Origin: Deltaproteobacteria bacterium
GTDB taxonomy: Bacteria > Myxococcota_A > Polyangia > Nannocystales > Nannocystaceae
Direction: 5' to 3'
DNA: 64,000 bases
NCBI GenBank assembly: GCA_016712475.1
Contig: JADJRA010000001.1
Coordinates: forward strand, 1,413,414 to 1,477,413
The notes under the pieces are model-generated. The model was not told the origin of the DNA, searched no databases, and saw only the letters and a list, made by a program, of their open reading frames with translations. Positions 2,983 through 37,475 of this stretch are shown here, one piece after another. The position numbers and the translations under genes were made by a program. The stretch's first letter is position 1. Each line of letters starts with the position of its first letter.

Positions 2983-3001
2983 CGATTGCGTCCGCGTCGA
3001 C

Positions 3002-4513: not shown

Positions 4514-4646
4514 GGAAAAGCTCCTGCGGGTGAAGAAGTGGTCCCGCTTCTCGGCCAGCGTTATGGCTGACCGAAGTGACCGTTCGAGTGCACGCAAGCG
4601 AACTCTCTGTCACGAAGCGGCCGAGCGATCGTCACGCCGCGGGGCG

Positions 4647-11205: not shown

Positions 11206-11462
11206 GGGGAACCGCCCCGCGGCCGCCCCACCCCACACTCCCCCCCCCGCCTCAAATTCACGTGTAGGGCGCGACACCCACCGGCCACGTGACTCCGGCA
11301 CACGGGCCCGGGCTGCACACGGCTGCCCACCCAGCCCACCACCCCAGCGCACCCTGCCCACCAATCCCCCACGCGACCCACGCCTCGCGAACGTGGCCGG
11401 GCGCGGGCACGCCCACCACCACCCTCGAGCCCCCGCGACGGCGGTTGGAGGTCGACGGGGCG

Positions 11463-12335: not shown

Positions 12336-12490
12336 CCGGCGTCACCGGCCGCGCACGCCTGCGACGTACTGCCGACGCCCGTCTCCGAACCATGGGACTC
12401 GCCCTGCGCCGCCGTACCGGCGCTCGACGACGGGTTGAAGCACGCCGTCGCGAGCAACGAGCCGACGAGAGGCAGCCACTGCGCACGCAT
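12336..12490 (-). pseudogene. Out-of-frame lipoprotein signal-peptide ORF immediately upstream of, and overlapping, the LamG gene; a candidate frameshifted 5' end of 11463..12335
   Basis: The ORF 12200..12508 (different frame) encodes MRAQWLPLVGSLLATAC (signal plus lipobox) and overlaps the LamG ORF start by about 136 nt; the LamG frame has a stop 3 codons upstream of its first Met. Confidence 0.35.
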
Positions 12491-12568
12491 CGTCGGAGCG
12501 TAGCGCAACCGGGCCAGCGCATCACCTACCGCGGGGTCCCGCGGAATTCGCCGTTCACGCCGCGACCT

Positions 12569-21416: not shown

Positions 21417-21539
21417 TCCAGCGCTCGCCCGCACCGGTTGGTGCCGCGCCGACCGACGGTTCCGCGGCCGACCCGAACGAGGGTGCTTGCCGCCGCCGGG
21501 CGATTGGGGCGACAATCGAACGCACAGAAGAGGTGCCCG

Positions 21540-21968
21540 ATGGCGAACCCGCAGAACTTCATCTCCGAGGACACCACCATCAAGGGCAGCATCACGACCG
21601 CGTCTTCGCTGACGGTCGCGGGCGCGGTCGAAGGCGACATCAACGCCGGCGGTGACGTGACCATCCTCGCCGACGCGTCCGTCCGTGGCGACGTCTCCGG
21701 CCCCGCGGTCACGATCTCCGGCAAGGTCGAAGGCCGTGTGAACGCGTCCGGCCGCCTGCTCATCACCGCGCGCGGCTTCGTGCAGGGCGACATCGCGGTG
21801 CGCTCGCTCCACATCGAAGAGGGCGGGACCCTGCAGGGGCAGTGCAACATGGGCTCGGCGGCCCCTGCCGCGGCCAAGGCCGGCAACGGGCGCACGATCG
21901 CGCCGCCGTTGTCCTCGCTGACGCCTCCGCCCGCCTCGCCCGCGGCAGCGCGCCCGCCCGAGCGCTGA
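21540..21968 (+). CDS. Bactofilin (CcmA-like cytoskeletal protein, DUF583)
   Basis: ATG at 21540 preceded by gaagagg; MANPQNFISEDTTIKGSITT...GAVEGDINAGGDVTILADASVRGDVSGPAVTISGKVEGRV is the typical bactofilin beta-helical repeat; Pro/Ala-rich tail. Confidence 0.7.
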   Translation: MANPQNFISEDTTIKGSITTASSLTVAGAVEGDINAGGDVTILADASVRGDVSGPAVTISGKVEGRVNASGRLLITARGFVQGDIAVRSLHIEEGGTLQGQCNMGSAAPAAAKAGNGRTIAPPLSSLTPPPASPAAARPPER

Positions 21969-22089
21969 GATCGTCGTTCGTTCCCCGCCGACGCTGCGCG
22001 CGAGGCTGCGCACTCGGCCGCCGCGGGACCGCTTGCAACCCGGCGCGCGTGCGCCCGTCCAGACAACACAACCGGAGAGAACCACCACC

Positions 22090-22500
22090 ATGCCCCGCAA
22101 TCGAATCCTGTTCCTGCTGCTGGCCCCCGTCCTCGCGCTCTCGGCGTGCAAGAAGGACTCGGCCGTCCAAGAGACCATCGACCTGCTGGACAAGCACAGC
22201 AAGGAGATCAAGGCGAAGGTCACCGACGCCACCGACAAGAAGGCGGGCGTGGCCGAGGCGCAGAAGTACATCGACGCCAACAAGGACGACATCGCCAAGC
22301 GCATCAAGGAGATGGGCGAGCTGAAGGGCTTCCAGGTCAGCGAGGAGATGCAGTCCAAGATGGCCTCGTCGCTGGTCGACGCCGCCTTCATGTGCAGCAA
22401 GATTCAGGTCGACCTGATGTCCGCCACGATGGAGGACAAGGACCTCGACGCCTCGCTCGAGAAGCTCTGCAAGACCTGGGACGACGCCGTCAAGATCTGA
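22090..22500 (+). CDS. Small hypothetical lipoprotein (136 aa, Lys/Asp-rich helical)
   Basis: ATG at 22090 preceded by ggagaga; MPRNRILFLLLAPVLALSAC lipobox; charged helical remainder. Confidence 0.55.
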   Translation: MPRNRILFLLLAPVLALSACKKDSAVQETIDLLDKHSKEIKAKVTDATDKKAGVAEAQKYIDANKDDIAKRIKEMGELKGFQVSEEMQSKMASSLVDAAFMCSKIQVDLMSATMEDKDLDASLEKLCKTWDDAVKI

Positions 22501-22551
22501 CGCTCGACGCACAAGGACGCGCACGCGACCTGAGCCTTTCTCCGGTCCCGA

Positions 22552-22594
22552 GAGGCCCGACGGCTAACCCCCGCCGGGCCTTCTGCGTTGGTTG
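22552..22594 (+). terminator. Candidate intrinsic terminator downstream of the bactofilin-lipoprotein pair
   Basis: aggcccgacgg-ctaacccc-cgccgggcct hairpin (about 11-bp stem, one mismatch) followed by ttctgcgttggttg; coordinates approximate. Confidence 0.35.
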
Positions 22595-23435
22595 CTCAGC
22601 GATAGCTCATGTGCAGATCGCAGCGCGTCGGCGTGAACGAGGCCACGCGCACGCGGACGTCCTTCTCGCCGCCGAGCTCGAGCGCGGCCTGCACGGCGGT
22701 CGCGTAGCAGCGCGCGATGAGCTCGGGCACGAGGTGCGGCGGATAGTCGATGACCCAGAAGTCACCGTTAGGGCGTCGCTACGCCCGCGAGGTGATGCCA
22801 CGATGCATGCGCGCGAAGATGTCGCGCCCGCAGCTGCGACCTTCCCTGCCGACAGTCGCAGGAGAGACCGTCGAAGGACCTTGCGGTCGCAGCGACGCAG
22901 CTCGACCGGTCGATCGCGCGGGGCACCGCCGAGTTCCGCGACGCACTACGACATTCGGCCGCTGCGCTGCCCGCGGTCGTCGTGCTCGGCCTTAGCACGC
23001 TTGGCGGACACCCGAGAACAGACTACGGACCACGGGCGACAGCCCGCTTCATGACGCCGTCCAGCCCGTCCCACGTCACCGCAGCAGGCGCGCAACGCCC
23101 GAGATGCCGGCCTCGTTCAGCCAGTCGATCACGAGGCCTCGAAGATCATGGATTTGCGGCTCCCCGGGAGAATTCGTGGGTCGATCGCAGCGTTGCGTGA
23201 GGCCGAGTTGTCGGTCCTGCCCCCGTCGTCCCCCTGCACGGGACCCGAGCCGCGGGCCGATTGGCCAATCGTCAGACCACACGAGCGAGTACGATCTTTC
23301 CTCACGACTTACGGAAGAACCATCTACTCTCGACCTACGGCAGGCCGTTGTAGTCACCGTGTCCCCTCGCTCGGCCAAAAGGCCACTAGTCAGCAGCTTG
23401 CGCGTACGCTCGAATCGGAGCATTGAACGACCCAA

Positions 23436-23470
23436 TTGACTTGACGCAGTCCCAGAACCCCGCTAGATAT
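23436..23470 (+). promoter_or_regulatory. Candidate sigma70-type promoter upstream of the first island gene (TTGACG, 17 nt, TAGATAT)
   Basis: ttgacttgacg cagtcccagaaccccgc tagatat read directly about 70 nt upstream of the ATG at 23539; the -35 element is near consensus, the -10 is weak. Confidence 0.3.
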
Positions 23471-23538
23471 GCACTACGCATGTGGCTCAGGCAGCAAGGA
23501 CATCCCACGCAATGCGCAAACCAACCCTGGGCGGCCAT

Positions 23539-24000
23539 ATGAATCGCAGATCGTGTATAGCCATTCTGTTTGTTGCTGGGTCGGGACTAGGCCTTGCGCT
23601 TCACCCTACGACTTGGTCGTTTGCGATGGCTGAAACCCCGCGCAATTCGCCCGTCCCGGCCCCCTATTCGAAGAGCGGGGAAGCAGAGGTCTCGCGCGCA
23701 AGCGCAACTGACACGCTGAGCTCGTGCACATGGGAAACCTTCAGCAGCACAACATCGGCTCTCGTCAATGCGGCGTGTCCGATACCTGCCAAGCGCGTAA
23801 TCTCCGGCGGCTGCATCAGTAGCGCCTCGGGGCGCAAACTGATTTGGATGCACCCATACGAGGAGGCCGCAATTGGGTCGCTTCCACTGCCCGACAACGG
23901 AGAGTGGTGGCACGCAACCGACGGCAACACAGGCTGGTCGTGCAACTTCTCCTCGTCTGGGACTACGAATACCGCGCTGGCGCTTTGTTGCGGCACCTAG
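23539..24000 (+). CDS. Small secreted Cys-rich protein, family A paralog 1 (C-terminal ...GWSC...LCCG motif)
   Basis: ATG at 23539 gives MNRRSCIAILFVAGSGLGLALHP (signal peptide); the about 110-aa mature domain shares C.W, CP, ISGGC, TGWSC and LCCG landmarks with the next two ORFs; lower-GC context. Confidence 0.6.
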   Translation: MNRRSCIAILFVAGSGLGLALHPTTWSFAMAETPRNSPVPAPYSKSGEAEVSRASATDTLSSCTWETFSSTTSALVNAACPIPAKRVISGGCISSASGRKLIWMHPYEEAAIGSLPLPDNGEWWHATDGNTGWSCNFSSSGTTNTALALCCGT

Positions 24001-24067
24001 TTGCAATCAGCGTAGTCAGCCACTACGGATCGCGTCTGCCAGAAGGCGCTGAAAGACGATCAGCACA

Positions 24068-24649
24068 GTGAACACACGGACAACAATGAGTCTTGTAGCC
24101 GGCGCCGGGCTTGCGTTGTTTCTGCTAGTCGGAGCAGGAGTGGCGGGCGCTCAGGCCGAGATCACGAACTCTGCCGACAACTATTCACCCCGTCTCAATG
24201 ACGGGACTGTTGGGGATGGCCGCGATGGCCGCAGCAGCAACACGCCAGCGGCCAACACCGACGAACTTCGCAGCGATGCAGTCGCGGTGCTCGCAGACTC
24301 GACTGACCATCTAAACAGTTGCGGCTGGCGTACGACCAGCGCATCGTGTGACTGCATCACGAATGATTGCGGAGCACTTCCGAATCACTGTGGGTACACG
24401 GTTGCATGCCCGGTTGGAGAGGCGGCAATCTCCGGCGGCTGCCGAATTTCGGGCGACTCAAGCGTCGAACTTCTTTCAAGTCGTGTGTATTCAAACTCGT
24501 CACCACTTCAGCTACTATATGCGACTGTTTGGTGGGGAGTGAGCGCAAATACTGGCTGGAGCTGCGAATTTGACAACGTAGACACGATGCCTTCCGGTTG
24601 GCCGCCAGTGTTTCCTACGATTGAAGTCACGGCGCTTTGCTGTGGATAG
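24068..24649 (+). CDS. Small secreted Cys-rich protein, family A paralog 2
   Basis: Signal peptide ...MSLVAGAGLALFLLVGAGVAGAQA (start GTG at 24068 or ATG at 24086); conserved SCGW, ACP, ISGGC, TGWSCEF, ALCCG; ends 38 nt before paralog 3. Confidence 0.6.
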   Translation: MNTRTTMSLVAGAGLALFLLVGAGVAGAQAEITNSADNYSPRLNDGTVGDGRDGRSSNTPAANTDELRSDAVAVLADSTDHLNSCGWRTTSASCDCITNDCGALPNHCGYTVACPVGEAAISGGCRISGDSSVELLSSRVYSNSSPLQLLYATVWWGVSANTGWSCEFDNVDTMPSGWPPVFPTIEVTALCCG

Positions 24650-24687
24650 CACGTCCAAGGTCCTCATCGCGAATAGGCATATACGTC

Positions 24688-25170
24688 ATGGCACCAGTGC
24701 ATCTTTCCAAAGGCCGGCCAGGTCGGGGACACCACTTTCAGCTTGTCTTGCTGTTCCTGTGCTCCGCAAGTTGCTCTTCGTTGGACCAAGGCGACGATAA
24801 GCCTATTCCGGCGACCCCGAACGATGACGACGGAGATAGCGAATCGGCCGACGACGATGAAGCCGTGGAACGGGCAGGGGCGTCCGATGAATTGGACACT
24901 TGCTGGTGGGTAGCATCACCGAATGGTGGCACGTCGGTCGGCACCGACTTTACGGTGAACTGCCCGGCGTCAAGACGGCCAATTGCAGGCCATTGCATGC
25001 ACACCGGCTCCGCGCAGCTAACGGATTCACACCCGTTCGAAGCGAGCAATGCATCGAATCTCCCAGAAGCTGGGGAGTCCTGGTACTCGACTAGTAGCAC
25101 GGCGGGATGGCGCTGCGCTTACGACGCTTCGGTGTCAGCACAGATCGGCGTACTTTGTTGCGGATCATAG
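24688..25170 (+). CDS. Small secreted Cys-rich (lipo)protein, family A paralog 3
   Basis: ATG at 24688 gives MAPVHLSKGRPGRGHHFQLVLLFLCSASC (signal plus possible lipobox); conserved TCWW, NCP, IAGHC, AGWRCAY, VLCCGS. Confidence 0.6.
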   Translation: MAPVHLSKGRPGRGHHFQLVLLFLCSASCSSLDQGDDKPIPATPNDDDGDSESADDDEAVERAGASDELDTCWWVASPNGGTSVGTDFTVNCPASRRPIAGHCMHTGSAQLTDSHPFEASNASNLPEAGESWYSTSSTAGWRCAYDASVSAQIGVLCCGS

Positions 25171-25642
25171 AAGGCTCGCTGTCCTGACTCTGGCGTTCGC
25201 AGGAACACATGATTTTGCGTTGGCGGGCGTCCGTGATACGCTTGCCGTGACGCGCCGCGCGGGTGACTATGTGGCACGGGATCTCGTCCAGGCAGAGGTG
25301 CTCTGGATCGTCGGTGTGTTCGCGATCAGCGAACTGTGATTGAGGCGGAGGTCGTCTCGTTCGTTCGCTCCCGGGTCGACTCCGCGGCTCCGCCATCGCG
25401 AACTCGCGGGTGTGCACGTTGGTGCGGTTGCCAGGTCGGGTCCACCTGGATCGACTTCGTGTGCTGATTCAGAGATTCGCGGGAGAAGCCGCTGCGCGCG
25501 CAATGCGCGAGCAGTGGTGCGCGATGGAGGCGAGGATGTCGTCGGCGCTCTTGGTCCAGGCGGACGGCTTCGGCTCGTCGTTGGTGCAGTGTCCGTGCGC
25601 CGGACCGCGTGCGTGGTTGAAGCAGCCGCGGGGCTTCCCGGT

Positions 25643-27249
25643 TCAGCCGCGCGCAGACTTCCAGCTCGCCGGCAGTAGATCTGCCGCGTCGGCCTCGCGG
25701 ACGCGCCGCGAGAGCCGAGCGAGCACGTCGGTGAGGTACGCGACCGGGTCGACGTCGGCGAGCATGCAGCAGCCGAGGATCGTGTACACCGCCGCAGCTC
25801 GGACGCCGCCGGCATCCGAGCCCGCGAAGAGGAAGTTCTTGCGGGTGAGTGCGACGCGGACATGCATGCGTTCGACGGCACCGTTGTCGAGCGGGATGTC
25901 TGGATCGTCGAGGAACCGGAGCAGCGCGTCTTGGTGGTTGAGCACGTATCGGATCCCACCGCCCATCGGTGACTTCGGCGGTTCGAAGGGTTGGTGCGTC
26001 TCGCACCAGCGGATCAGTTCGCCGCAGACTGCCGCGCTCTTCGTGGCGCGCTCGGCGTGCCGCGCTTCGCGATCGAGACCGCGGATCTCGTCTTCGATCT
26101 GGTACAGCACCTTGTACGCCGAGACCGGCAGCGAGGCGCGATCGTCTCCGGCCTCGAGCGCGGCGACGAACTTCCGACGTGCGTGCATGTTGCACCCGCA
26201 CTCGATGATGTCGTCGCGCGCGAAGCTCTTGTCGAAGAGCGTCGCAGCGTCCGCGACCGTATAGCCCTTGCGCAGCCTCAACAGATCCTCGGGACCGATC
26301 TCGCCTTCGCGCTGCCCGACCTTCTTGCCGGTGCTCGCGTAGAAGTAGAACGCCGAGTCGTCGCCGACGCAGCCCCACAGCGAGCCGATTCGCTTGCCCG
26401 TGCCGACGCGCTTGTTGGTGCCATCGCGGTCGAGCACCGGCAGACCTGTGCCGTCGATATGCATGATCTTCGCCGCGAGCGTGCGCTCCTTCGCGGCGCG
26501 CACGAGCGGTGCCAGCAGCTCCGTCGCCCACGTCACCTGATCGGCGAGCGTCGACACCGACAGCTCGACACCGAGACGCCCGAAGCGATCGCGCTGCCGA
26601 TGCAGCGGCAGGCCATCGCGGTACTTCTCGACGAGCAGATTGGCGACGAGCGCACAGCCCATCCGTCCGCCCTGGACCACCTTGTCGCCCAGCGGCGCGC
26701 GCACGACCTCGGCCTCGCAGTCGTCGCACGCCAGCTTCTCGCGGCTGTCGACGCGTATACGATCACCTCGGCCGGGATCAAGTCGAGGATCTCGGTCGTG
26801 TCGTGCCCGATGCACCGCCGCTCCTTGCCGCATCGCGGGCACGGCCGAGCAGCGGTCGGCACGACGATCGGGTTCGGAATCCGCCGCAAGTTCGCCGGCA
26901 GCGGGCGGCGAAGCGGCGGCTGAGGAGGCGCCGGCGTGCCTCCGCGCGCCGCAGGTGCGACCTCCTCGCTGGTCTCGCGCAGCTTCTGATCCGCTGCGTC
27001 GCGGGTCGCGTCGCCGGTGCTCGCGAGGCTCTCGAGCAGCAACGCGAGCTGAGCCGTCGACACGCCCTCGTTCGTGCGACGAGGTGAGCGAAGCTCGGCG
27101 AGCTTGCGTTCGAGCTCGCTGTTGCGGGCAACGAGCTTCGACACGAGCTCGAGCACCGTGTCGAGCTGGCCCTTGTCGAGCAGCTCGCGAAGCACCTCGA
27201 GCACGGGGGCGCGCTTCGTCGTCGTGCTTGCCGATCCCGTCTTGCTCAT
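25643..27249 (-). pseudogene. tnpC: IS66 transposase TnpC, disrupted by a frameshift near 26745-26757
   Basis: The N-terminal leucine-zipper and Zn-finger part (MSKTGSAS...CPRCGKERRCIGHDTTEILDLIPAEVIVY) is in the frame of ORF 26533..27387. The DDE catalytic part (REKLACDDCEAEVVRAPLG...LPLHRQ...HIDGTG...CNMHARRKF...) is in the frame of ORF 25643..27289. Both read through the same stretch gatcgtatacgcgtcgac in different frames. Confidence 0.7.
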
Positions 27250-27337
27250 GCCGACGTCGACACCATAGCGGCGTCCGGCGCCGCGGCAACCGAAAATCAT
27301 CGCACGCCCGCGTGTGGTTGCGCGCGGTCGCCCGGCA

Positions 27338-27706
27338 TCACGCGCGTGCGTGCATCGGCGGCTCCCATCGACGTGACGCGCGAGCACGTGTGATGTCGAT
27401 GCCCTCGAGTAGCATCGAGAGCTCGTGCACGTCGATCTCGACCGTCGACACCTCTTCGGCCACGCGCTGTGGAAACGTGAAAGTGCCCCGCTCGAGCCGC
27501 TTGTGCACGATCGTGAAGCCGCCGCGCGTGTACACCAGAAGCTTCACCTGGGTCTTGCGCCGGTTGAGGAAGACGAAGACGTGCCCGCTCAGCGGATCTT
27601 GCGCGAGCACGCTGCGAACGTCGGCACTCAGCCCGTCGAACGATCGCCTCAAGCTCACCGGCGACGTCGCGACGTACACCTTCACTGCCCGCAGCAGCAG
27701 GATCAC
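27338..27706 (-). CDS. tnpB: IS66 Orf2 (TnpB)
   Basis: ...VKVYVATSPVSLRRSFDGLSADVRSVLAQDPLSGHVFVFLNRRKTQVKLLVYTRGGFTIVHKRLERGTF matches the IS66 Orf2 consensus (DMRK(S/G)FDGL); GTG start at 27706 overlaps the tnpA stop (GTGA). Confidence 0.7.
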   Translation of the reverse strand: MILLLRAVKVYVATSPVSLRRSFDGLSADVRSVLAQDPLSGHVFVFLNRRKTQVKLLVYTRGGFTIVHKRLERGTFTFPQRVAEEVSTVEIDVHELSMLLEGIDITRARASRRWEPPMHARA

Positions 27707-28053
27707 GTCTTCGGCCTCAAGGTGATCATCTCCGAGACGAGTTGAGCGAGCCACTGTGCCGACACACGATCGGCGCGCACCTCGATCTCGACCTCGCCGA
27801 CGTGCACCACGACCTCGGCCACCACCGCCGGCTCGGACGCCAGCATCGGGACGAACTTGACCGCGCCGCGCGTGCCCTCCGTCGCGACGCGCCGCTTCCA
27901 CCACCGCAGCCTCCCGCTGCCGAGCTCATGCCGCCGCTCGAACTCCGCGAGCGTCAAACCACTGCGCTTCCACGCGCGAACTGCTGCGCGGCCATCGGCC
28001 GTCGTCCATCGCACCCCGCTCGCCGGCGCCGTCCACTCGCTCCCGCGTGACAT
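27703..28053 (-). CDS. tnpA: IS66 Orf1 (TnpA, HTH protein)
   Basis: 116 aa; ...AWKRSGLTLAEFERRHELGSGRLRWWKRRV... is typical of IS66 orf1; first gene inside the IR-bounded element. Confidence 0.7.
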   Translation of the reverse strand: MSRGSEWTAPASGVRWTTADGRAAVRAWKRSGLTLAEFERRHELGSGRLRWWKRRVATEGTRGAVKFVPMLASEPAVVAEVVVHVGEVEIEVRADRVSAQWLAQLVSEMITLRPKT

Positions 28054-28182
28054 GCCCGCGAGCGTGCACGATCACTGGGCGGCCACGCGGGTGCGCTCGG
28101 GCGGACGGACACCTCCCGCGTGACATGCCCGCGAGCGTGCACGATCACTGGCGGCCACGCGGGTGCGCTCGGGCGGACGGAC
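28037..28182. repeat. About 73-bp tandem duplication (2 copies) near the tnpA-proximal end of the IS66 element
   Basis: ctcccgcgtgacatgcccgcgagcgtgcacgatcactgg(g)cggccacgcgggtgcgctcgggcggacggacac occurs twice in a row (read directly; coordinates approximate). Confidence 0.6.
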
Positions 28183-28400
28183 ACGCGCGTGGCTGAACCG
28201 GGAAGCCCCGCGGCTGCGTCAACCACGCACGCGGTCCGGCGGACGGACACCCACGGTCGTCGAGCACGAGCGCGGTCGGTCGAGATGGTCGCGCTTCAGG
28301 GTTGTCGGTGGGCGGCCCAAAGCGGCGCGCGCCCAACGCGGCCGGCGTGCTATGAGCATGCTGGCTCGCGTGGGCGCGTCTCCGGGGTCAAGCGGCAGCG

Positions 28401-28811
28401 TCAGATTTGCTCGAGGCAGGAGGCCGGCGGAGAGAGTCTCTCGAACCCGAGCTCGCCACGTGCAGAGGTCAGCTCAGCCACGATGGTTGAGTGTGGGACT
28501 TGCGCCATGCGCCCTACCATAAAGCCACGGTAGTTACGCACAGCTTCACGTGGGGTCAGTTGGCCGAGAGTGCCGGACGAGACCCACTCCGCCGTGAGGA
28601 CGTCGATCGCGAGCGCGGTGGCCTCCGACTTCGGCGGCGCAGGCACGTACTGCGATCGGATCTCAGCCACGCGTCGGGCGTCGAGAGTGTAGGTGCCGAC
28701 TCGAGCGACTGAGCAGTCCTCGCCCTCAGACGGACCGGGCGCCGGACCAGGAACCGGGCCTTTGCACGCCGGGCAGATCACGATCAGCAAGGTGAGGAAG
28801 TAGCGTTGCAT
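28401..28811 (-). CDS. Small hypothetical lipoprotein (136 aa), co-transcribed downstream of the island subtilisin
   Basis: ATG at 28811 with a strong AGGAGG RBS (revcomp of 28812-28830); MQRYFLTLLIVICPAC lipobox; lower-GC codon usage. Confidence 0.55.
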   Translation of the reverse strand: MQRYFLTLLIVICPACKGPVPGPAPGPSEGEDCSVARVGTYTLDARRVAEIRSQYVPAPPKSEATALAIDVLTAEWVSSGTLGQLTPREAVRNYRGFMVGRMAQVPHSTIVAELTSARGELGFERLSPPASCLEQI

Positions 28812-28820
28812 GACATCCTC

Positions 28821-31307
28821 CTAATCACCGCCGCCATCAGGCTCATTGTCCACTTCAGACGTGGCCATGCAGAAGACATGAACAACCGCAGACCCCGAAC
28901 TACTCACCCATTCTTTGTCGACGGTCACCTCGACGCACGTGTCCTCCACGTTGACCAGCGAGTCCTCGAACGCTACCATTTTCTTGTGATCGTGATCAGC
29001 GTTGATGCGCGTGTAGCTAGGAGTACCGTAGCCGACCGCGCAGGTGCCATTCCCCTGCTTCGGGCGCAGGCGCAGCTCGAGATCGATGCGACTGATGTTG
29101 TCCTTTCCGGACATGTCCTCGATCGCCATCATGACGCACTTGACCTCTTCGGTGCCCGTTGCAACAGGGCCACCAAAGGCGATGTATTGCTGGTCTGCGG
29201 TACCACTGGTGAATGTGTAGGTGTTGTACGAGAGCGCACCTCCCGCAAAGCTCGGCGAGCCGTTCGAAAGCAAGCGGAGCTTCGCTCGTCCGAGACCAAA
29301 GAGGTTGTCCGCACCCACGACGTTCTTCGTTCCCGAGCTGTTGCCCCGGTCACCCATGCCGAGCATCACCGTGTGCAAGCGTCCCACGTTCGAGATCCAC
29401 GTTTGGCCATCGTTCAGACCCCAGTCCTTGACGAGAGCCGCCATCCCGGCAACAGCCGGCGCGGCAAAACTCGTACCGACCCACTGCCCGGTGCTCACGC
29501 AGCCGTTGGTGCCGGAGCCCGAGGTTACGTAGTTCACGTAGGCAGATGGCGCCGCGAGGTCTGCCATGGACAACGCCCCGCCCACCGTCGTTCCGTCCGG
29601 CGACTGGATAGACCCACCGCCGCGACTCGCGTAGGTGTCGTCGATATCCATGACCGAGTACAACGTGTCGTCCGTGCTGAGCCCGTTGACCGAGAAGGTC
29701 TTGGGAATGTCCGCAGGGCTGGACATGTTGCACGACGATCCCGTCGTGCCGTTGTTCCCCGCCGATACCGCGATGAAGATGCCGTCGTCGAACGCGCCCT
29801 CGTAGGCGTCCTCGAGATCATAGCTCGAAGTCGCGTCACAGGTGGCGTTCGGATACGAATCACCATCATTCCAGCCGTTGCTACTGCTGATGATGCTCGT
29901 GAGATAGCAACTACCCGGACCGGATGGCGTGAGCTCAATGTCGATGCCCTGAAGGCAACTCGTTGACATCACGTGACGGCTCATCAGGGTGCTACCCTGG
30001 TGATCGAAGAACTGAACGACCGCCTCCTTTCCGTAGCCGCTCGCCGAGTTCTCCCACGAGGCACTGTGGTTCGTGGTGCTGTCGCAAACCGTCAAGCCTT
30101 GAGCCTGATCCTGGGTGTAGTCGCCGACAGCGATGGAGGACACGACGGTGCCGTGGTTGACGTTCGAGGCCTCCGAGTAGTTGGCTTGTGAGTAGCTCTC
30201 ACAGTACTCAACCCAACACTTCCACCGGCCAAGGAGCCGTTCAGTCTCGCATCCACTGTCGTCGTCAAAGAAGCACGCTTCGTCATTGAAGTGCCACTGC
30301 TCTTGGATGCCGATCGTGATTTGTCCCGCACCGTTTTCAGCGTTGAATCCGGCGTCGATGTACGTCTGAGCGTCAGTGTAGGAGCGCGAATCTCGATGGA
30401 TTCCGATCGCGCGGCTGCCGTGCGACTGAAGACCAACGTCGTCGAGATCGATCTTCGTGATGTCTTCGCGCGCCTGCAGCTCCTCCAACAGGCCCTTCGA
30501 GACAGAAGCGCCTAGCCACCCCGTGGTCCAGTGATAGACGCGGATCGTTCCGCCGCTTTCCACGATCTGTGCTGCCAATGACGACGACCGCTCCAAAAAT
30601 GCTTCCTCTCGCTCGGCCAGCGCGACTTCGCGCTGTTCGACCGCGGCAGCATACGTCTCTGCGCTCCACATCCCCACCTCAGGAAGTAGCGGAACATCCC
30701 AATCGGGGGCACCCCGCAACTTGATCAGCACGTCGAGGGAGTCATCCGGTCCAGCTTCCTCGGCCGCAGCGAGGAGGGTAGGACGCACCACGAGAGGCGC
30801 ATCGTCGGATGGTTCCGCAGGCGGGTCGACGTTTGGAACTCGAGTCACCCGATAGGTGTCGGTGCGCGTGCCTTCCGCGTCCACGACCGACGTTACCGTC
30901 TCTTCGTACAGGTACTCGTCCTGTAGGTGCGTATAGGGACGCGAGACCTTCCGCCAGGTCTCAAGGTCCAGCTCACCGACCTCCGTTGACGAGACCATCT
31001 CGCCACTTTCGTTCTCTACGAGAACCTTCTCGTACACCAACTCGCGTCCAGCATTAGCTGCGTCCGGATCTCGTACTTCGGTCTCGACATCGCCAGCACC
31101 GCCCGAGCTCCCTTCCTCAATCTCATCCGCGGGGAGGACTTCCGAGCGTGGGCTATGCAGCCCTCCCTCGGCACTGTCGACGGGCGCTCGGTCATCGCAG
31201 GCGGGCGCGAGAGCCAATGTGGATAGAGCCCACATGCGACGCAGGCACGTCCAGCGGTTCGCACGGGAATTGCCAATCGCAACAAGCTTCTTCGCCGAGG
31301 TTGACAT
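28821..31307 (-). CDS. Subtilisin-like serine protease (peptidase S8) with a long N-terminal pro-region and a C-terminal extension
   Basis: Catalytic motifs NHGTVVSSIAVGD (His), GTSFAAPAVAGMAALV (Ser) and a DAG Asp region; start taken at the ATG at 31307 (MSTSAKKLVAIGNSRANRWTCLRRMWALSTLALAPAC, a long K/R-rich n-region plus LAPAC lipobox-like end). The ORF opens at a TTG at 31445; an ATG near 31235 is an alternative. Confidence 0.7.
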   Translation of the reverse strand: MSTSAKKLVAIGNSRANRWTCLRRMWALSTLALAPACDDRAPVDSAEGGLHSPRSEVLPADEIEEGSSGGAGDVETEVRDPDAANAGRELVYEKVLVENESGEMVSSTEVGELDLETWRKVSRPYTHLQDEYLYEETVTSVVDAEGTRTDTYRVTRVPNVDPPAEPSDDAPLVVRPTLLAAAEEAGPDDSLDVLIKLRGAPDWDVPLLPEVGMWSAETYAAAVEQREVALAEREEAFLERSSSLAAQIVESGGTIRVYHWTTGWLGASVSKGLLEELQAREDITKIDLDDVGLQSHGSRAIGIHRDSRSYTDAQTYIDAGFNAENGAGQITIGIQEQWHFNDEACFFDDDSGCETERLLGRWKCWVEYCESYSQANYSEASNVNHGTVVSSIAVGDYTQDQAQGLTVCDSTTNHSASWENSASGYGKEAVVQFFDHQGSTLMSRHVMSTSCLQGIDIELTPSGPGSCYLTSIISSSNGWNDGDSYPNATCDATSSYDLEDAYEGAFDDGIFIAVSAGNNGTTGSSCNMSSPADIPKTFSVNGLSTDDTLYSVMDIDDTYASRGGGSIQSPDGTTVGGALSMADLAAPSAYVNYVTSGSGTNGCVSTGQWVGTSFAAPAVAGMAALVKDWGLNDGQTWISNVGRLHTVMLGMGDRGNSSGTKNVVGADNLFGLGRAKLRLLSNGSPSFAGGALSYNTYTFTSGTADQQYIAFGGPVATGTEEVKCVMMAIEDMSGKDNISRIDLELRLRPKQGNGTCAVGYGTPSYTRINADHDHKKMVAFEDSLVNVEDTCVEVTVDKEWVSSSGSAVVHVFCMATSEVDNEPDGGGD

Positions 31308-32147
31308 GCACAATTCTCCAGACCGGTGTTTCGGTCGGTTCGTCGGTACAGATCGTTGCCACGCCGCGCACATGTCCGCGCGCGGTGGCCCAGATTGGCC
31401 AAAACTCTGCGGCCGAGCATACGGCCGATTGGGCAGATGTGTCAACCGATGATTTTGCGTCAGAAGTATGAGTTCTTTACTCGGCGTCTAGCCGGGTCTA
31501 GCCGGACAATTTGCGGCGTCGGCAATGCAACACGGTTGGCATCGTTGGGTGTCAAAGTGACGCTCTCCGGGAGAATAGTCGCGCGGTTTCCGTACGCTGC
31601 GCACCTTCGCCAGCGCTGAACCAAGGCGAGGTAAGGAAGAGACCAGCGTGATGCTTCAATAATTCGCCGGCGGCCGGGGAGCGAGCGCCACCGACCTTTC
31701 AGCTCCTGTGGCACGCTACGTCCGAAGTGGGATGGCAACGTCGCAGACGTCGTGGACGACACCAGGCGGCTCACCGCGATCGCGATTGCCCCCCTCGTCT
31801 CTCGGCCGGTGCGCATTCACTGGTTGTGCAGCTCGGCAGGAAGTCAGTCAGAAGGAAGACAGCGAGCGCTCCGTGTAGAAGCTCACAAGTGGCCATTGGA
31901 TCACTCGGCTTGGACCTCAACACCGGTTACCGGGGGCCTTGAGCTACTGCTCGTCTTGCCGTGGAGGCCGTTCCCCTGGGAGAGAGTTCGTGGGCGGTCG
32001 GGTAGATCGTCGAGTAGCGACATGAGGACCGAGGGCGCGCAGCCACCCGTGTCGATGTCGCGAATCTGTGACAGGCGCACCAAGCGCAGCGCTTCGCTGC
32101 GCTTGGCATACCTGGACATGACGTGGCGGTGGTGGCATGCTCAGCGC

Positions 32148-32663
32148 ATGGCAAGATTGTGGTCGCATCCAGCGACTTCGTTTGTTTGTCTCCTATCACT
32201 GAGCTGTTCGGACCGGAAAGGCGGCGATGAGGGCGTGGCGTCTAACACCGCCTCAAGCTCGGACGGGGATGGCGAGAACGGGAACTCCGAGGGTTCTTCC
32301 ACGACGAGCGAAGCACTCGGGGTCGAGGATTGCGAAGGTCTCCTTGTCGAGGCCGACTGCAACAACGCCATGCTCGCCGATGTTGGCCAATGCATGTGGG
32401 TCCCGAGATACGCACCGGCGCCCGGCGTGACAAGCTGCGGAGCACAAGACGCAACGGAGGCGTGCGTTGGAATCATCGGTAGTCAGCAGGGATGCGGGCT
32501 GTATTCTTGTCCTGGCGATGAAGGCGTCAATATCTACTATCGACAAGCAGATGGCGGAATTGAACTGTTCGTCAGCCCTCTGTGCGGCCCGGAACCTGTC
32601 GGGGGGTGGATGGCGTGCCAGGCAAACATCCCCGAGTGTTCTTGTCCCTGCTCTGCTAATTAG
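32148..32663 (+). CDS. Secreted Cys-rich lipoprotein, family B paralog 1
   Basis: ATG at 32148 gives MARLWSHPATSFVCLLSLSCSDRKGG (lipobox); mature domain with about 14 Cys (EDCEGLLVEADC...CVGIIGSQQGCGLYSCPGDEG...LCGPEPVGGWMACQ...ECSCPCS) collinear with the next ORF. Confidence 0.6.
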   Translation: MARLWSHPATSFVCLLSLSCSDRKGGDEGVASNTASSSDGDGENGNSEGSSTTSEALGVEDCEGLLVEADCNNAMLADVGQCMWVPRYAPAPGVTSCGAQDATEACVGIIGSQQGCGLYSCPGDEGVNIYYRQADGGIELFVSPLCGPEPVGGWMACQANIPECSCPCSAN

Positions 32664-32670
32664 GAGGCAT

Positions 32671-33105
32671 ATGAAGCGCGCATGCCTGATCCTGCATGTT
32701 ACCTTGCTGGGAGTGACAGCCTGCACCCAGACTGAGCTTGAAGACTGCGAGAAGATTCAGCACGAGTCAAAATGTGAAGATGCCGATGTTGATGGCGCGG
32801 GTGCCTGTCATTGGGTCGAGGCCTATCGGCCGTCTGTGTCGGAAACCGCATGCGAAGTGGGCGAGCCGACCGGCTTGTGCGTCGGCATCGGAGGCACCCA
32901 ACAGGGCTGCGGTCTCTTTGGGTGCGAGCCAGGGTCCGAAGATGAATCGGCGAACCTCTACTTCCGCCATGATGGCCCGCAGGTCGAAGTGTTCGGCAGC
33001 CCAGAGTGCGGCCCCGAGCCAGTCGGCGATTGGACCGCTTGCTCGAGCGCCGACGCGCCGGCCGAGTGTAGTTGTCTGTGCGGCGTCGCAGAGCCGCCCT
33101 CGTAG
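32671..33105 (+). CDS. Secreted Cys-rich lipoprotein, family B paralog 2
   Basis: ATG at 32671 preceded by taggaggcat (AGGAGG RBS); MKRACLILHVTLLGVTAC lipobox; EDCEKIQHESKC...CVGIGGTQQGCGLFGCEPGSED...ECGPEPVGDWTACS...ECSCLCG matches paralog 1 motif for motif. Confidence 0.65.
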   Translation: MKRACLILHVTLLGVTACTQTELEDCEKIQHESKCEDADVDGAGACHWVEAYRPSVSETACEVGEPTGLCVGIGGTQQGCGLFGCEPGSEDESANLYFRHDGPQVEVFGSPECGPEPVGDWTACSSADAPAECSCLCGVAEPPS

Positions 33106-33169
33106 GGCCGGCGCCGCTAACTTACGATGCGGCATGTGTCAACGAGAATGAGATTTTTGGGTTGAGAGT

Positions 33170-34183
33170 TTAGTGAAGTCCGAGCTCGCTCTCCGAGCGA
33201 TTCTCGGGTGGGTTGATCCAGACTGCCTTGGGGAGCGTGGGCACCTGCGGTGGGCCTGCGACGAAGCGCTCTGGGTTCTTCGCGAAGGCTTCGTTCATCA
33301 CGAGCTGGCGCTGCGCGAGGACCTCGGTGGCGCGCCCGAAGAAGACGTCGGCGGGAGTGAGGCGAGCGATGCCGGAGTGCCGGTGCTCGTCGTTGTACCA
33401 GGCGAAGAAGCGCCGGCAGAAGTCGCGCGCGTGGTCGAAGCTCTCGAAGCGCTCCGGGAAATCTGGGTGCGACTTGAGGGTGTGGAACTCGGACTCGGAG
33501 TGCGGGTTGTCGTTGCTGACGCGCGGTCGGCTGAACGACGCCGTGATCTCGAGGTCGCGCAGCAGCTGCTTCACAGTCTTGCCCCTGGGCACGGGCCCGC
33601 GGTCGGCGTGCAGCTTGAGCGTGCCCGGTTCGATCCCGTGGCGGTTGCACGCCTCGCGGATCAGCTTCGCCGCGAGCTCGCCGCTCTCCTCGTGGGCGAG
33701 CATCCAGCCCGGGTTGTAGCGGCTGAAGAGATCGATGATCACGTACAGCGGGTAGTAGGTGTACTTCACCGGACCGCGCAGCCACGTCACGTCCCACGTC
33801 CAGACCTGGTTGGGTGCCGTGGCGATCAGTTCGGGTCGCGCGTACTTTGGGTGCCGGGCTTGATCGCGGCGCTCGCGGATCTCGTCCTGCAGCGCCAGAA
33901 TCCGATACATCGTGCGGGGATGGCAGAGGTAGTGCTGCTCGTCGAGCAACGTGGCGTGCACGGTCGCCGGCGCCTTGTCGACGAAGCGCTCGGAGTGGAG
34001 CACCTCAAGCACGTTGGTCCGCTCGGCTTCGGAGAGCGCGCGTGAAGGTCGTCGACGTGGTCGGCGGGGGCCATGCAGGGCCGGCTGCCGCCAGCGGTAC
34101 GCAGTGCTCCGCGGCACGCCGAGCGCCTCGCAGGCGACCGCCACGCCGAGCTGGTCCGCGAGTTCGTCGACCGCTGCCTTCAC
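33170..34183 (-). CDS. IS3-family transposase OrfB (DDE integrase core; expressed as an OrfAB fusion by -1 frameshift)
   Basis: ...WTWDVTWLRG...YPLYVIIDLFSRYNPGWML...HADRGP...YNDEHRHSGI... is the rve/DDE core; the frame is open upstream of the first Met into the orfA 3' end. Confidence 0.75.
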   Translation of the reverse strand: MKAAVDELADQLGVAVACEALGVPRSTAYRWRQPALHGPRRPRRRPSRALSEAERTNVLEVLHSERFVDKAPATVHATLLDEQHYLCHPRTMYRILALQDEIRERRDQARHPKYARPELIATAPNQVWTWDVTWLRGPVKYTYYPLYVIIDLFSRYNPGWMLAHEESGELAAKLIREACNRHGIEPGTLKLHADRGPVPRGKTVKQLLRDLEITASFSRPRVSNDNPHSESEFHTLKSHPDFPERFESFDHARDFCRRFFAWYNDEHRHSGIARLTPADVFFGRATEVLAQRQLVMNEAFAKNPERFVAGPPQVPTLPKAVWINPPENRSESELGLH

Positions 34184-34587
34184 GTCGGCTCCTCGGTGTC
34201 GTCGCTGTCCAGCCCCAACACCTCCGAGAGTTTTTTTTGGACCTCGATGATCTTCTCGGCCTTGCGCAGCTTCTCGCGCAGGCGCTCGTTGTCACGCCGC
34301 AGCTTCTCCAGCTCGGCCTGCTCCGCCGTCTGCTTCGGCTTGGGTCCGCGTTTGCGCTCCAACGCCTTCAACGTACCCTCGAGCCTCTGCCCGCGCCAGC
34401 TCGTGAGGTGCGACGAGTACAGGCCCTCTCGCCGCAGCAGTGCGCCCACTTCGCCCGGCTTCGTGCAGGCGTCGGCATCCTGCAGCACGCGCAGCTTGTA
34501 CTCCTTCGTGAAGCGCCGCCGATGCGCTCTCTCTCGGGTCTCCGTCTCGACCTTCCGTGGGTTCGCGCTCGATGTCATTTCGTACAT
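34180..34587 (-). CDS. IS3-family transposase OrfA (HTH / leucine zipper)
   Basis: 135 aa ...RRRFTKEYKLRVLQDADACTKPGEVGALLRREGLYSSHLTSWRGQ...; ends with QKKL encoded by CAA AAA AAA CTC; the A-AAA-AAA heptamer (minus strand, + coordinates about 34231-34237) is a canonical -1 slippery site into the orfB frame. Confidence 0.75.
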   Translation of the reverse strand: MYEMTSSANPRKVETETRERAHRRRFTKEYKLRVLQDADACTKPGEVGALLRREGLYSSHLTSWRGQRLEGTLKALERKRGPKPKQTAEQAELEKLRRDNERLREKLRKAEKIIEVQKKLSEVLGLDSDDTEEPT

Positions 34588-35169
34588 GGTCCCTCGCGCC
34601 CCTCAGTAAATTCCGGCTCGGCAGTGTCTCATCCCTCGTTGGCACAGGGGCGCGCTGCTCGACTGGGTACGCGCCGGGGCTCCGGACGCAATGAAGGAGC
34701 GTGAGGTCGAGCAGGCCGCGGTTCTGCTCGAGCGCGTCCTCAACCAAGAGACCGAGCCCGAGCCCGGCCGACCAAGACGAGTACAGACCCGCAGGGGCGT
34801 CGCTGGCGTCGCTGAACACCGCGTCTGCGACCCGAACATGCGCCACGGCCGAAAAATGCCGCTCACACGCCTTCAACGGCTACAAGCGCTAGATCGCGAC
34901 TTCGATCGACGCGCCGCTCGTGCTCGCAGCCGAAGCGCGACCCGCCAACCAACCCGAACGCGGGGTGAACCCTCGCTCGTTGACCAAGTAGCGCCGTACG
35001 GCGAGTTCCACGAGTTCTTCATCGACCACGGCTTTCTTGCACATGCCGAGATCGCCGCGCTGGATCGAGACGGCGTGAAAGTCCGCCGTCGTCCCTGGCG
35101 CGACCAGACCAAGCATGAAGGCTTCGGCAACAGCGCCTTCAAGATCGGCCTTCGCCGACGATTAAGTGG

Positions 35170-37083
35170 CTACTCTCTTCGCGGACGTCGCAGAGACCAA
35201 CCGAGCGCCAGCCCACCGAGCGCGAGAACGAGGCCCTCACGACCCTCGCCGGGCTGGTTGCACGCGCAGCCGGCCGGCGAGTCCATGTTGATGCTCGGAT
35301 CGCCCGTGCTCGACTCGTCGGCGTCGCCGCCCGAGCTGTCCGACGGCGTGCCGGTCGGATCAGTCGTGGTGCCGCCTTCGCCACCCGACGTGTCGGCGCT
35401 CTCGACGTGCTTGATTTCGACAACGATAGGGTCGCTATACGCGTCGTTTGGGCCGTCGAACACCCTCGCGCCGAAGATGTACGTGCCCTCGGGGATGTTC
35501 GTGACGTCGTAGTCGTACGGCGCCTCGAACAGCTTGAAGTACGGCTTGGGCTGATCGTCGACACCGACCACCTGCACGTAGAGCTCGACCTCGGTCACCA
35601 GGCGATCGTCCATCGCCTCGACGTTGATCGTGAAGTCGCTGCCGGGCTCGAAGATCGCACCGTCCTCCGGGTAGGTGATCGCCGCGGTCGGCGGCGAGAT
35701 GTCGAGCGGCCACGGCTCGGCCGAGCACTCGAGCGAGCCGATGTTGCCATCGGCCATCTCGGGCGAACCGCCGTCGCGGCAGGTCGGCGAGCCGCTGCCA
35801 CCGTCGGGGAACTGCACGTCGATGACCGCGTGGGTGCCGAGCATGTCGACGACGGTGAACGACACGTTGCCGGTCGGGTCGGTGTACGAGTCGCCCGGCT
35901 GCATGAAGTAGCCACCGTCGCTGGCGGCCTCGAGGATGTACGGCGACGGCGAGTAGTCGTAGCTGCTCGACAGGTGCAGGAACACGCCGTCGAGACCAGC
36001 GTCGACGCCGATCGACTGACGGTACTCGAGGTAGTAGAAGCGACCGTCGCCGGAGGCGAACTCGAGCGCCTGGGTGCCGTTGCACGGCAGCTCGGTCGGC
36101 AGCAAGTTGAAGGTGCCGCTGGTCTCGGTGTTGACGACGTTGCAGCCCTCGAGCCAGCCCATGTAGGCCTTCTGCGCCACGTTCATGTGATCGCAGCCGC
36201 CGCCCATCGGGTCGTGCGGATCGCCGTACTCGACGTGCTCGCACTCGCCGTCCATGGTCGGCGCGATCACGCCGGCGGGGCAGTCGTACGAGTGCGAGTG
36301 GCCCATGCCGTAGTTGTGGCCGATCTCCTGCGCACGCACGACGCAGCCGAGGTTGCCGTTGTACCAGCTGTTGCGCGCCGGGGCCTCGACCGAGCCGAGG
36401 GTGGCAAGCCCGCCCCAGCCGCACGGCAGGCTGGGATAGAAGGCCCACATGTACTGCTTGTACTCGTCGGGATCGTGGCCGTGGTCGACGAACGCCTGCA
36501 GGCCGCGATCGGCGATCACGTCGGCGTAGCAGTCACCGGGGTCGTCGATCTGGTAGGGGCCGAACACGTCGCCCGCGATGGTCTCCTTGCCGTAGGAGTT
36601 CTCGCCGTAGAACACGTTGGTCGAGTCGCCGGCGATGAACATGTCCTGGGTGACGGTGCCGTTGTTGGGACCTTGGTTGGCCGGGTTCCAGAACAGCAGC
36701 ACGGTCGCGATGCGACGGTAGGTGTACTTCTCGGGATCGATGAGCGGCTGCGGCGGCAGTGCCAGCACCTCGAGCTCGTCGATCTCGTAGGTCCGCTCGT
36801 CGAGCGGCTCGCCCCACACGCGCACGAAGGTCTCGTAGGCGAGGTCTTGCTCGACCTCGCCGGCGAGCTCGAAGACGCCGTCGGGCGTCTGCACGTGATG
36901 GGTGATGCGCGCAGTGCCGTCGTCCATCGACGCGATCCGCTTCTCGTACTTGCCCTCGATCGACCCGGCCGTGATGATGCCCGAGCGCGACAGCAGCTCG
37001 TCGCCGGGGCTGTCGCCTTGCTGGCATGCGGGCAGGACCAGGGCCGTGAGGGACAGTGCAGGGAGCAGGCGGCGAAGGGACAT
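35170..37083 (-). CDS. Secreted zinc metalloprotease lipoprotein (HxxGxxH-type zincin) with a C-terminal MYXO-CTERM-like sorting tail
   Basis: ATG at 37083 with a gggaggg RBS; MSLRRLLPALSLTALVLPAC lipobox; AQEIGHNYGMGHSHS metal-binding motif; the C-terminus ...SPAGCACNQPGEGREGLVLALGGLALGWSLRRPRRE has the Cys, hydrophobic segment and Arg-rich tail typical of MYXO-CTERM. The 142 Arg/Ala-rich residues upstream in the ORF are rejected. Confidence 0.65.
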   Translation of the reverse strand: MSLRRLLPALSLTALVLPACQQGDSPGDELLSRSGIITAGSIEGKYEKRIASMDDGTARITHHVQTPDGVFELAGEVEQDLAYETFVRVWGEPLDERTYEIDELEVLALPPQPLIDPEKYTYRRIATVLLFWNPANQGPNNGTVTQDMFIAGDSTNVFYGENSYGKETIAGDVFGPYQIDDPGDCYADVIADRGLQAFVDHGHDPDEYKQYMWAFYPSLPCGWGGLATLGSVEAPARNSWYNGNLGCVVRAQEIGHNYGMGHSHSYDCPAGVIAPTMDGECEHVEYGDPHDPMGGGCDHMNVAQKAYMGWLEGCNVVNTETSGTFNLLPTELPCNGTQALEFASGDGRFYYLEYRQSIGVDAGLDGVFLHLSSSYDYSPSPYILEAASDGGYFMQPGDSYTDPTGNVSFTVVDMLGTHAVIDVQFPDGGSGSPTCRDGGSPEMADGNIGSLECSAEPWPLDISPPTAAITYPEDGAIFEPGSDFTINVEAMDDRLVTEVELYVQVVGVDDQPKPYFKLFEAPYDYDVTNIPEGTYIFGARVFDGPNDAYSDPIVVEIKHVESADTSGGEGGTTTDPTGTPSDSSGGDADESSTGDPSINMDSPAGCACNQPGEGREGLVLALGGLALGWSLRRPRRE

Positions 37084-37475
37084 GCTCCCTCCCCATATCA
37101 TCCTTTGCGGGCGCTCGCAGCGGCTTTGGGCGGGCGTGGCGAGGACAGGCTTTGTCGCCGCGCGCAAGCGGGTCCGCGCGTGGGTGCACGCACGATCGAG
37201 CGTCCGGAGAGCGCACGCCTCGTCGTCGGACCCGAGCGTCGCGGACCGACGGCGCGCGCCTGCATGCCGTGCGACAGCACACGATTGCCGCACGCGCGAG
37301 CCCGACCCACGCGTGCCGTGCTCGCGCCCGCCGATGCTGTGCGCTGCGGTCTCGCGGCTCCACGCGTGTGAGCCGATCGCGACGATCACACGCGCAGCCG
37401 TGCGGCTCCACACTCGCGACGTGACACGCGCGATGTCTTCGCGCGCGAGGTTCCTTGCTAGCTTCTTCGACGACG

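Follow-up and report, generated by a model that had tools for sequence, protein, structure and literature searches.

A stretch of 64,000 nucleotides (nt) from a Nannocystaceae (Myxococcota) genome (GenBank assembly GCA_016712475.1, contig JADJRA010000001.1, positions 1,413,414 to 1,477,413 of the forward strand), referred to here as the window, contains an inserted block with genes for two families of small Cys-rich proteins, family A and family B, and for a subtilase of peptidase family S8. An earlier reading of the letters of this stretch (the original prediction) had described the block as a horizontally acquired island, and all of the genes it listed are present at the positions it gave them. 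The block, a genomic island without an assigned strand, spans 22501–35200 by blastn and tblastn comparison with two related loci, L009 and L011, its right limit falling at 35200–35248.

Three family A genes on the forward strand open the cargo. A1 (type 1; 23512–24000; 162 residues, alternative start 23539; P0002) encodes a signal peptide, a linker and a six-Cys module ending in ALCCGT. A2 (type 2; 24086–24649, +; 187 residues, alternative GTG start 24068; P0003) has a signal peptide ending in AQA/E and a module with a four-Cys insert (CDC..C..C) that is kept in its ortholog at locus L007. A3 (type 3; 24688–25170, +; 160 residues; near-identical database form P0001) is a probable lipoprotein with an acidic linker and a module bearing the loop SHPFE...NLPE.GE.WY. 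The paralogs are 30–41% identical over the module, share six invariant Cys in the order C..C..C..C..CC, and carry a C-terminal LCCG.

An IS66-family insertion sequence separates the trio from a second group of genes, which we call module 2. The S8 gene (28821–31307, −; 828 residues; P0119) encodes a lipoprotein with His (HGT), Asn (SAGNNG) and Ser (GTSFAAP) motifs, and 9 nt downstream of it lies the gene for a 136-residue lipoprotein (28401–28811, −) with an AGGAGG ribosome-binding site and no family match; the predicted pairing of a subtilase with a downstream lipoprotein is upheld by this spacing and by the Pfam score of the peptidase (PF00082, 41.5 bits against a cutoff of 21.8). The two family B genes are B1 (32148–32663, +; 12 Cys, acidic; started at 32022 in databases, giving 213 residues; P0010) and B2 (32671–33105, +; 144 residues, lipobox VTAC, AGGAGG ribosome-binding site; P0009), whose products are 48% identical with 12 Cys, bearing out the predicted pair of Cys-rich paralogs. 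An IS3-family element closes the cargo. Family hidden Markov models (HMMs) run on the six-frame translation found no further copy of either family in the window. By direct reading, signal peptides or lipoboxes make the predicted export of these Cys-rich proteins plausible.

Borders and composition of the inserted block

By nucleotide alignment, the genome carries about 12.7 kb that is extra relative to L009 and L011, which are loci of Nannocystaceae metagenome-assembled genomes (MAGs). Alignment of both with the window ends at 22500, the stop codon of the 155-residue lipoprotein gene that borders the island on the left (22033–22500), and picks up again at 35201–35248; the convergent M11/Big_7 peptidase gene (35170–37509) borders the island on the right. 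Both relatives have the gene order kinase, aroA, methyltransferase, 155-residue lipoprotein, convergent M11/Big_7 peptidase, enoyl-CoA hydratase and PaaA/PaaC-like protein (PaaA_PaaC domain), and their empty site consists of a single GC-rich hairpin and T-run, a common terminator, between the convergent lipoprotein and M11 genes. Their flanking proteins are 78–95% identical to those of the window. A search by way of a flanking gene likewise led to Nannocystaceae MAGs as the closest species representatives (78–86% for the methyltransferase, up to 95% for other flanking proteins), and the window itself is matched at 99.86–99.97% by the NCBI MAGs GCA_016709225.1, GCA_017996215.1 and GCA_020051655.1. 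The island had been placed at 23.2–34.6 kb; its existence is confirmed, but the missing block reaches about 700 nt further to the left and about 500 nt further to the right.

The cargo differs from its surroundings in composition. Against a GC content of 0.70–0.72 in the flanks, the segments 23200–25300 and 28400–33100 have 0.592 and 0.613, respectively, and GC at third codon positions (GC3) is 0.57–0.74 in the cargo genes, 0.88–0.96 in the flanking genes and 0.76–0.88 in the genes of the insertion sequences. Tetranucleotide distances to the flank profile place the two cargo blocks at z = 10.4 and 11.5, beyond every flank chunk of the same size; IS66, at z = 1.8, lies inside the flank range and IS3, at 3.3, mildly outside it. 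A GC dip had thus been rightly predicted (59–61% against 70–72%), but the 50–58% given for it is too low, since block means are 0.59–0.61 and the lowest 500-nt window is 0.556. Nor is the dip a single stretch: it consists of two blocks, because the interior of IS66 (0.69) is host-like; IS3 has 0.66.

That the flanking genes are adjacent in L009 and L011 and that the cargo composition is foreign makes it well supported, from sequence comparison, that the block was acquired horizontally. Both the composition and the synteny comparisons suggested with the original prediction come out in favor of this origin, the first setting the cargo clearly apart from the flanks and the second locating the empty site. 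What weighs against it is that no means of arrival was recognized: the junctions share no repeat of at least 11 nt, the Pfam-scanned open reading frames (ORFs) include no integrase, and there is no tRNA gene at the junctions, the sole tRNA gene of the window lying at 46394. The same lack of integrase and attachment repeats would suit a block that is ancestral and was lost in relatives, with its low GC3 reflecting gene-specific codon usage such as might accompany low or stage-specific expression, and both modules indeed show lowered GC3 in other high-GC hosts too. Three related genomes without the block, a clean common terminator at the junction in two of them, tetranucleotide usage that deviates alongside GC3, and the extreme rarity and patchiness of the families all speak against ancestry and loss, which we regard as most improbable.

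Under horizontal acquisition, about 8.5 kb of foreign DNA would have come to lie between two convergent chromosomal genes of a Nannocystaceae genome and would later have grown to 12.7 kb with IS66 and IS3. The block resembles ordinary myxobacterial islands decorated with insertion sequences in its deviant composition, its absence from relatives, its accessory exported proteins and the elements inside it, and departs from them in lacking an integrase, a tRNA target and direct repeats and in the host-like composition of its insertion sequences. The island itself is ordinary; its cargo is not.

Both insertion sequences lie on the minus strand and both had been predicted. The IS66 element (25589–28250) is complete, with tnpC (25643–27289), tnpB (27338–27706) and tnpA (27703–28053) between inverted repeats of 66 nt (25589–25654 and 28185–28250, 95% complementarity), and its NCBIfam scores are 258.8 bits for transpos_IS66, 92.7 bits for IS66_TnpB and 38 bits for IS66 TnpA, the equivalogs being above cutoff. 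No 8-bp target-site duplication was found at its flanks, TTGGTGCA and CCACGGTC. A perfect 72/73-nt tandem duplication (28040–28184) spans the tnpA start codon and upstream region, and the end motif CGGACGGACAC is present three times, at 28102, 28174 and 28240. The IS3 element (33135–34646), also complete, consists of overlapping orfB (33170–34183) and orfA (34180–34587), with Pfam matches to rve, rve_3 and HTH_Tnp_1; its inverted repeats (TG...CA), TGTGTCAACGAGAATGAGA and TGTGCCAACGAGGGATGAGA, stand at 33135 and 34646, positions that coincide with break or divergence points of short-read contigs, and no target duplication is visible. In contig L004 (ENA ERZ22666027, 2078–2536) IS3 is followed by a flank unlike that of the window, with a 75-residue ORF (MACGDGDRTVLV...); this is a structural variant or else an additional copy of IS3 that the assembler joined in. 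The host-like composition of IS66 and IS3 suggests that they probably entered the island after its arrival, and, coming from two different families, the pair is no composite transposon.

At the left edge, a 60-codon open frame (22596–22778, −; local GC about 0.69) has no Pfam match, and its translation, ending ...VRVRVASFTPTRCDLHMSYR*, reads like the C-terminal remnant of a decayed gene. The right-edge segment (34647–35200, no strand assigned) comprises about 550 nt with no recognizable gene, its 75-codon ORF (34889–35116, −) having no family match. A scan for promoters and terminators gave no enrichment over shuffled sequence. Just left of the island, between the methyltransferase and 155-residue lipoprotein genes, lies a bactofilin gene (21438–21968; Pfam E-value 1.3e-24).

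Family A cassettes and multi-module relatives

The five small proteins A1–A3, B1 and B2 match no Pfam or NCBIfam model, in line with the original prediction, which could name no family for them; family A, however, can now be placed, since it most probably has the fold of resistin and of the PCSK9 C-terminal modules, as discussed below. Family A is rare. A word-indexed search of 5.8 billion proteins returned eight members, among which are the three from the window, and an exhaustive HMMER search of 1.84 billion cluster representatives returned 115 at E ≤ 1e-3 (42 at E ≤ 1e-10), none of which matches a Pfam family via the module itself. The GTDB species-representative scan contained no type 1 gene, the JGI metagenome scan produced one short contig with a type 3 gene, and the viral contig scans held neither family A nor family B. 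Most members have 120–250 residues, and their module, at the extreme C-terminus, follows a leader (signal peptide or lipobox) and an acidic linker.

At locus L007, genes of types 1, 2 and 3 occur in the same order as in the window and are 60%, 45% and 57% identical to A1, A2 and A3, respectively. Because these position-wise identities exceed those between the paralogs, A1–A2–A3 is, on this comparison, an old ordered three-gene cassette and not a recent tandem duplication; the three tandem Cys-rich paralogs that had been predicted are genuine. A second trio is found in the 15-kb contig L018, with low GC3 amid a high-GC context. A JGI contig holds three tandem genes (163, 180 and 127+ residues), the first of which (P0004) is the one read and confirmed as family A, and L017 has a tandem pair cut by the contig end, its second family A gene beginning 3 nt after the first. 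In the gene tables of the NCBI MAG contigs L013, L014 and L015 the family A trio has no product entry, and that of L013 also omits B1, B2 and IS3; Logan and ENA gene calls are the sole source of these proteins.

The relatives also include longer proteins, in which the module is repeated up to three times. With an iterated family HMM, 98 representatives have one module, 6 have two, 11 have three and none has more, one of the 11 having been reported with four since the HMM split its first module. At least two of the six two-module proteins look, on direct reading, incomplete or equipped with a degenerate third module. Three of the three-module proteins carry their modules after a peptidase domain (M64 in P0055, Trypsin_2 in P0083 and P0088), and one protein joins three family A modules with RTX repeats.

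Since the module is appended to secreted peptidases, the leaders direct export, and a family-specific loop, SHP[FY]E..NLPEDGE.WY, is strongly conserved, we favor a role for family A in binding or targeting, with the loop as a candidate binding site. Further neighborhoods were seen. In L019 (1555–9257), from an organism of 46% GC, the two-module protein P0014 is encoded between a PPC-domain protein and a lysyl-endopeptidase/trypsin-like protein of 1689 residues with CBM_4_9, a gene context that is another link of family A to secreted peptidases. In L018 an M11/Big_7 peptidase gene (11152–13053) lies 6 kb from the trio and its product is 52% identical to that of 35170–37509 in the window, and a further M11-like fragment (FVHEIGHTQG) stands at the contig start (2–598); a family A trio with an M11 peptidase is a possible recurring neighborhood. 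Single family A genes of the P0013 type at L020 (2401–3674) and L030 (47–1290) each adjoin a divergent gene for an extracytoplasmic function (ECF) sigma factor.

Predicted fold of the family A module

The AlphaFold2 model of A1, built from an eight-sequence alignment (mean predicted local distance difference test score (pLDDT) 79.7; predicted template modeling score (pTM) 0.72), has six strands and forms a six-stranded β-sandwich like that of a PCSK9 module; the predicted fold also resembles RELM-beta. The C-terminal modules of PCSK9 (M1–M3) are six-stranded with six Cys paired 1–6, 2–5 and 3–4, and together they resemble the resistin homotrimer (PMC9113161); the resistin head is a trimerizing six-strand jelly-roll (PMC8253364). 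Each family A product would accordingly resemble one such unit: it would be exported and would consist of an acidic low-complexity linker and one six-strand β-sandwich of about 100 residues, held by three disulfides if the Cys pair as we infer.

The Cys pattern was compared with the PCSK9 module motif, C-x17-19-C-x8-9-C-x18-25-C-x11-23-CC. Number and order are the same in family A, and the spacings C1–C2 (13–16), C2–C3 (10–11) and C4–C5 (13–24) are similar. The C3–C4 spacing is about 42 in family A as against 18–25 in PCSK9, and it is about 22–25 in the three-module relatives, which do not have the long loop. The homology of these relatives to family A is clear (hhalign, 99%, E 4e-18); in the same comparisons, their alignment to PCSK9 M3 spans 57 columns and brings four Cys into register (E 0.0025), and that to resistin spans 39 columns (E 0.0036). 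A profile of 102 family A modules gave short local matches to single PCSK9 modules and resistin at the expected places (E 0.008–0.18). A PDB search found residues 452–692 of the PCSK9 query identical; the human resistin query, which may be approximate, matches with high significance only the PDB chains of mouse resistin and RELM-beta.

Differences from both animal families are considerable. Relative to the PCSK9 C-terminal domain, the modules of the window are encoded by three separate genes rather than in one chain, and the genes stand alone, the family HMM detecting no further module anywhere in the window, the S8 protein included; the C3–C4 loop has roughly double the length and a conserved acidic/aromatic motif, the modules lack His-richness, and family A has no significant sequence similarity to PCSK9. 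Relative to resistin and the RELM proteins (PF06954), family A has six Cys instead of 10–11 and lacks CxCxC; of the resistin ending CC-x3-6-end it shares only a terminal CC-x1-2-end. As read from the sequence, an acidic, disordered linker that is Pro/Gly/Ser-rich and variable in length replaces the N-terminal coiled coil of resistin. The proteins are acidic rather than cationic, and where resistin has three copies of one chain, family A has three different paralogs.

Several results weigh against homology. The fold assignment derives from a structure predicted from eight sequences, and the Foldseek search with that model, in which PCSK9 ranked first, gave a non-significant match (E 0.4, probability 0.84). 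The profile comparisons with resistin and PCSK9 are individually at E 0.0025–0.18, with HH probabilities below 12%. The Pfam Resistin model (PF06954) matched none of the window proteins even at E ≤ 10, and its hits on the three-module relatives P0115 and P0075 (E 0.081 and 1.4) fall under the 25-bit cutoff; the PCSK9_C model did not reach threshold with family A, and a PDB sequence search with the family A profile gave no match. The long C3–C4 spacing counts on the same side. Family A might instead be an unrelated orphan that had converged on a small disulfide-stapled β-sandwich, its members perhaps serving as lectins, bacteriocins or structural surface proteins, a reading that we consider unlikely. 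With the good but shallow predicted model, the Cys order and the weak, concordant sequence signals (the relatives' alignments and sub-threshold Resistin hits) taken together, family A is probably homologous to the resistin head and the PCSK9 M1–M3 modules.

If the trio belongs to this fold, it might act as RELM-like antibacterial proteins that bind lipids and permeabilize the membranes of other bacteria during predation. The Myxococcota host belongs to a predatory order, the trio genes are accessory and horizontally acquired, and the likeness of the predicted fold to RELM-beta fits such a role. RELM proteins kill bacteria via multimeric pores, through their C-terminal domain, and this activity needs positive charge to bind acidic lipids (PMC8253364). 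Because the family A modules are acidic (pI 4.1–5.0) with acidic linkers, membrane attack of this kind is less likely; moreover, in each trio one or two of the products look anchored to lipid rather than released, no immunity gene can be made out, and the C-terminal placement of the module on peptidases in relatives fits binding better. We therefore judge the antibacterial role improbable and retain binding or targeting.

The homotrimer of resistin, the three-module pseudo-trimer of PCSK9, the limit of three modules in the bacterial relatives and the conserved ordered trio lead us to propose that A1, A2 and A3 would come together outside the cell as a single heterotrimeric head, with a ligand or a surface as its binding target. 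Counting against this assembly are its derivation from gene order and module counts and the occurrence of P0015, a family A singleton.

Module 2 and the two-module cargo

The S8 peptidase of module 2 is very divergent: the word-indexed search brought up a single relative at the E ≤ 1e-10 level (P0120, 58% identity). Its best PDB matches are to subtilisin BPN' (E 1e-3) over the regions of Asn155 and Ser221, and the His, Asn and Ser motifs align. The catalytic Asp motif D[ST]G was not recognized; at the expected distance before HGT stands IGIQEQ, the MAFFT alignment of the N-terminal part being unreliable. Glu stands in for Asp here, or else the enzyme is an atypical one. The IGIQEQ site lies around ITIGIQEQWHFNDE (window 29900–30300), and the same sequence is found in P0120, the only close homolog. 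The protein shares with bacterial subtilases that have partner lipoproteins a score above the Pfam threshold, the His/Asn/Ser motifs and a lipoprotein leader, and differs from them in its divergence, its unrecognizable Asp motif and its linkage to two orphan lipoprotein families.

In L012, the S8 relative P0120, a lipoprotein (37% identical to the 136-residue protein, E 1e-19) and a family B protein (43% identical to B2, E 1e-31) are encoded in order on one strand; in the window, family B is duplicated and divergent from the S8 gene. The order in L012, together with low GC3 amid high-GC neighbors, indicates a mobile unit, conserved as such, made up of the genes for the S8 peptidase, the lipoprotein and family B. 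GC3 there is 0.59–0.66 (1510–5087) as against 0.84–0.94 in the neighbors, and the family A trio of L018 (4223–5625), like the L012 module, has a GC3 markedly under that of its neighbors in another high-GC host. From these values, both cargo modules seem to travel as cassettes or else to retain a codon usage of their own.

Just four members of family B are known. The family matches no Pfam or NCBIfam model, the PDB profile search gave only one match, at chance level (E 0.029), no family B gene occurs in the JGI metagenome scan, and its AlphaFold2 model from three sequences (pLDDT 44) was unused for fold search. A relationship between families A and B was considered and rejected, the two being unrelated by profile comparison. 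All three kinds of module 2 protein have lipobox-like leaders on direct reading, canonical in B2, P0011 and the L012 proteins. Module 2 would then be a surface-anchored protease unit in which the small lipoprotein would be a partner or regulator and family B a partner or substrate; these partner roles are guesses, against which the four members and low-confidence model of family B also weigh. No defense system is indicated: Pfam, NCBIfam and PADLOC scans gave the S8 protein only generic, sub-threshold subtilase/IetS-like matches and the small proteins and the 136-residue lipoprotein none.

The original prediction had treated the cargo as a single module with a co-resident protease. On gene content across loci, the cargo is instead two independent conserved modules, because other loci conserve either the trio of family A or the set of S8, lipoprotein and family B genes and never the two together; both occur on one locus only in the window's own species. 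The most explicit form of a single system would be a PCSK9 split into parts, in which the S8 peptidase would be served by three resistin-like detachable targeting subunits and family B would be the substrate. The presence of an S8 gene and three modules resembling the PCSK9 Cys/His-rich domain in one island recommends this reading, as does the fusion of peptidase domains to three such modules in bacterial relatives. The fused peptidase domains are, however, M64 or trypsin-like and not S8, family A is missing from L012, which has the S8/lipoprotein/family B set, an S8 gene is missing from L007 and L018, which have trios, and in the window the trio and the S8 gene are convergent and apart even with IS66 removed. 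The integrated system of S8, A and B was therefore rejected on co-occurrence, and we consider the split PCSK9 very improbable.

Taken as a whole, the account favored here, comprising a foreign island, two unrelated modules, a resistin/PCSK9-like trio, its heterotrimer and a protease unit, is one to which we give somewhat better than even confidence. A bolder extension, which we offer tentatively as possible and not as the likelier outcome, is that resistin and the PCSK9 tail would have their first recognized prokaryotic homologs in family A and its three-module relatives, that the three-module unit would be ancestral and often carried on a secreted peptidase, and that it would take three bacterial forms, namely tandem modules after M64 or trypsin-like peptidases, stand-alone three-module proteins, and the three-gene cassette with heterotrimeric products. 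Literature searches turned up no published bacterial relative of resistin or of the PCSK9 Cys/His-rich domain, and the PCSK9 reviews that were read do not treat the evolutionary origin of that domain.

With module 2 comes another orphan set of genes, encoding an S8 lipoprotein, a small lipoprotein and a lipoprotein with 12 Cys. Should the predicted fold of family A hold, a small bacterial family would tie these animal proteins to a prokaryotic module that follows a rule of three per unit and occurs repeatedly on secreted peptidases, trimeric architecture and ligand binding could be tested in a simple system, and the accessory repertoire of myxobacteria would include a new exported protein complex. 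The PCSK9 tail and the resistin hormones would, if the bolder extension is true, gain both a bacterial origin and a tractable model.

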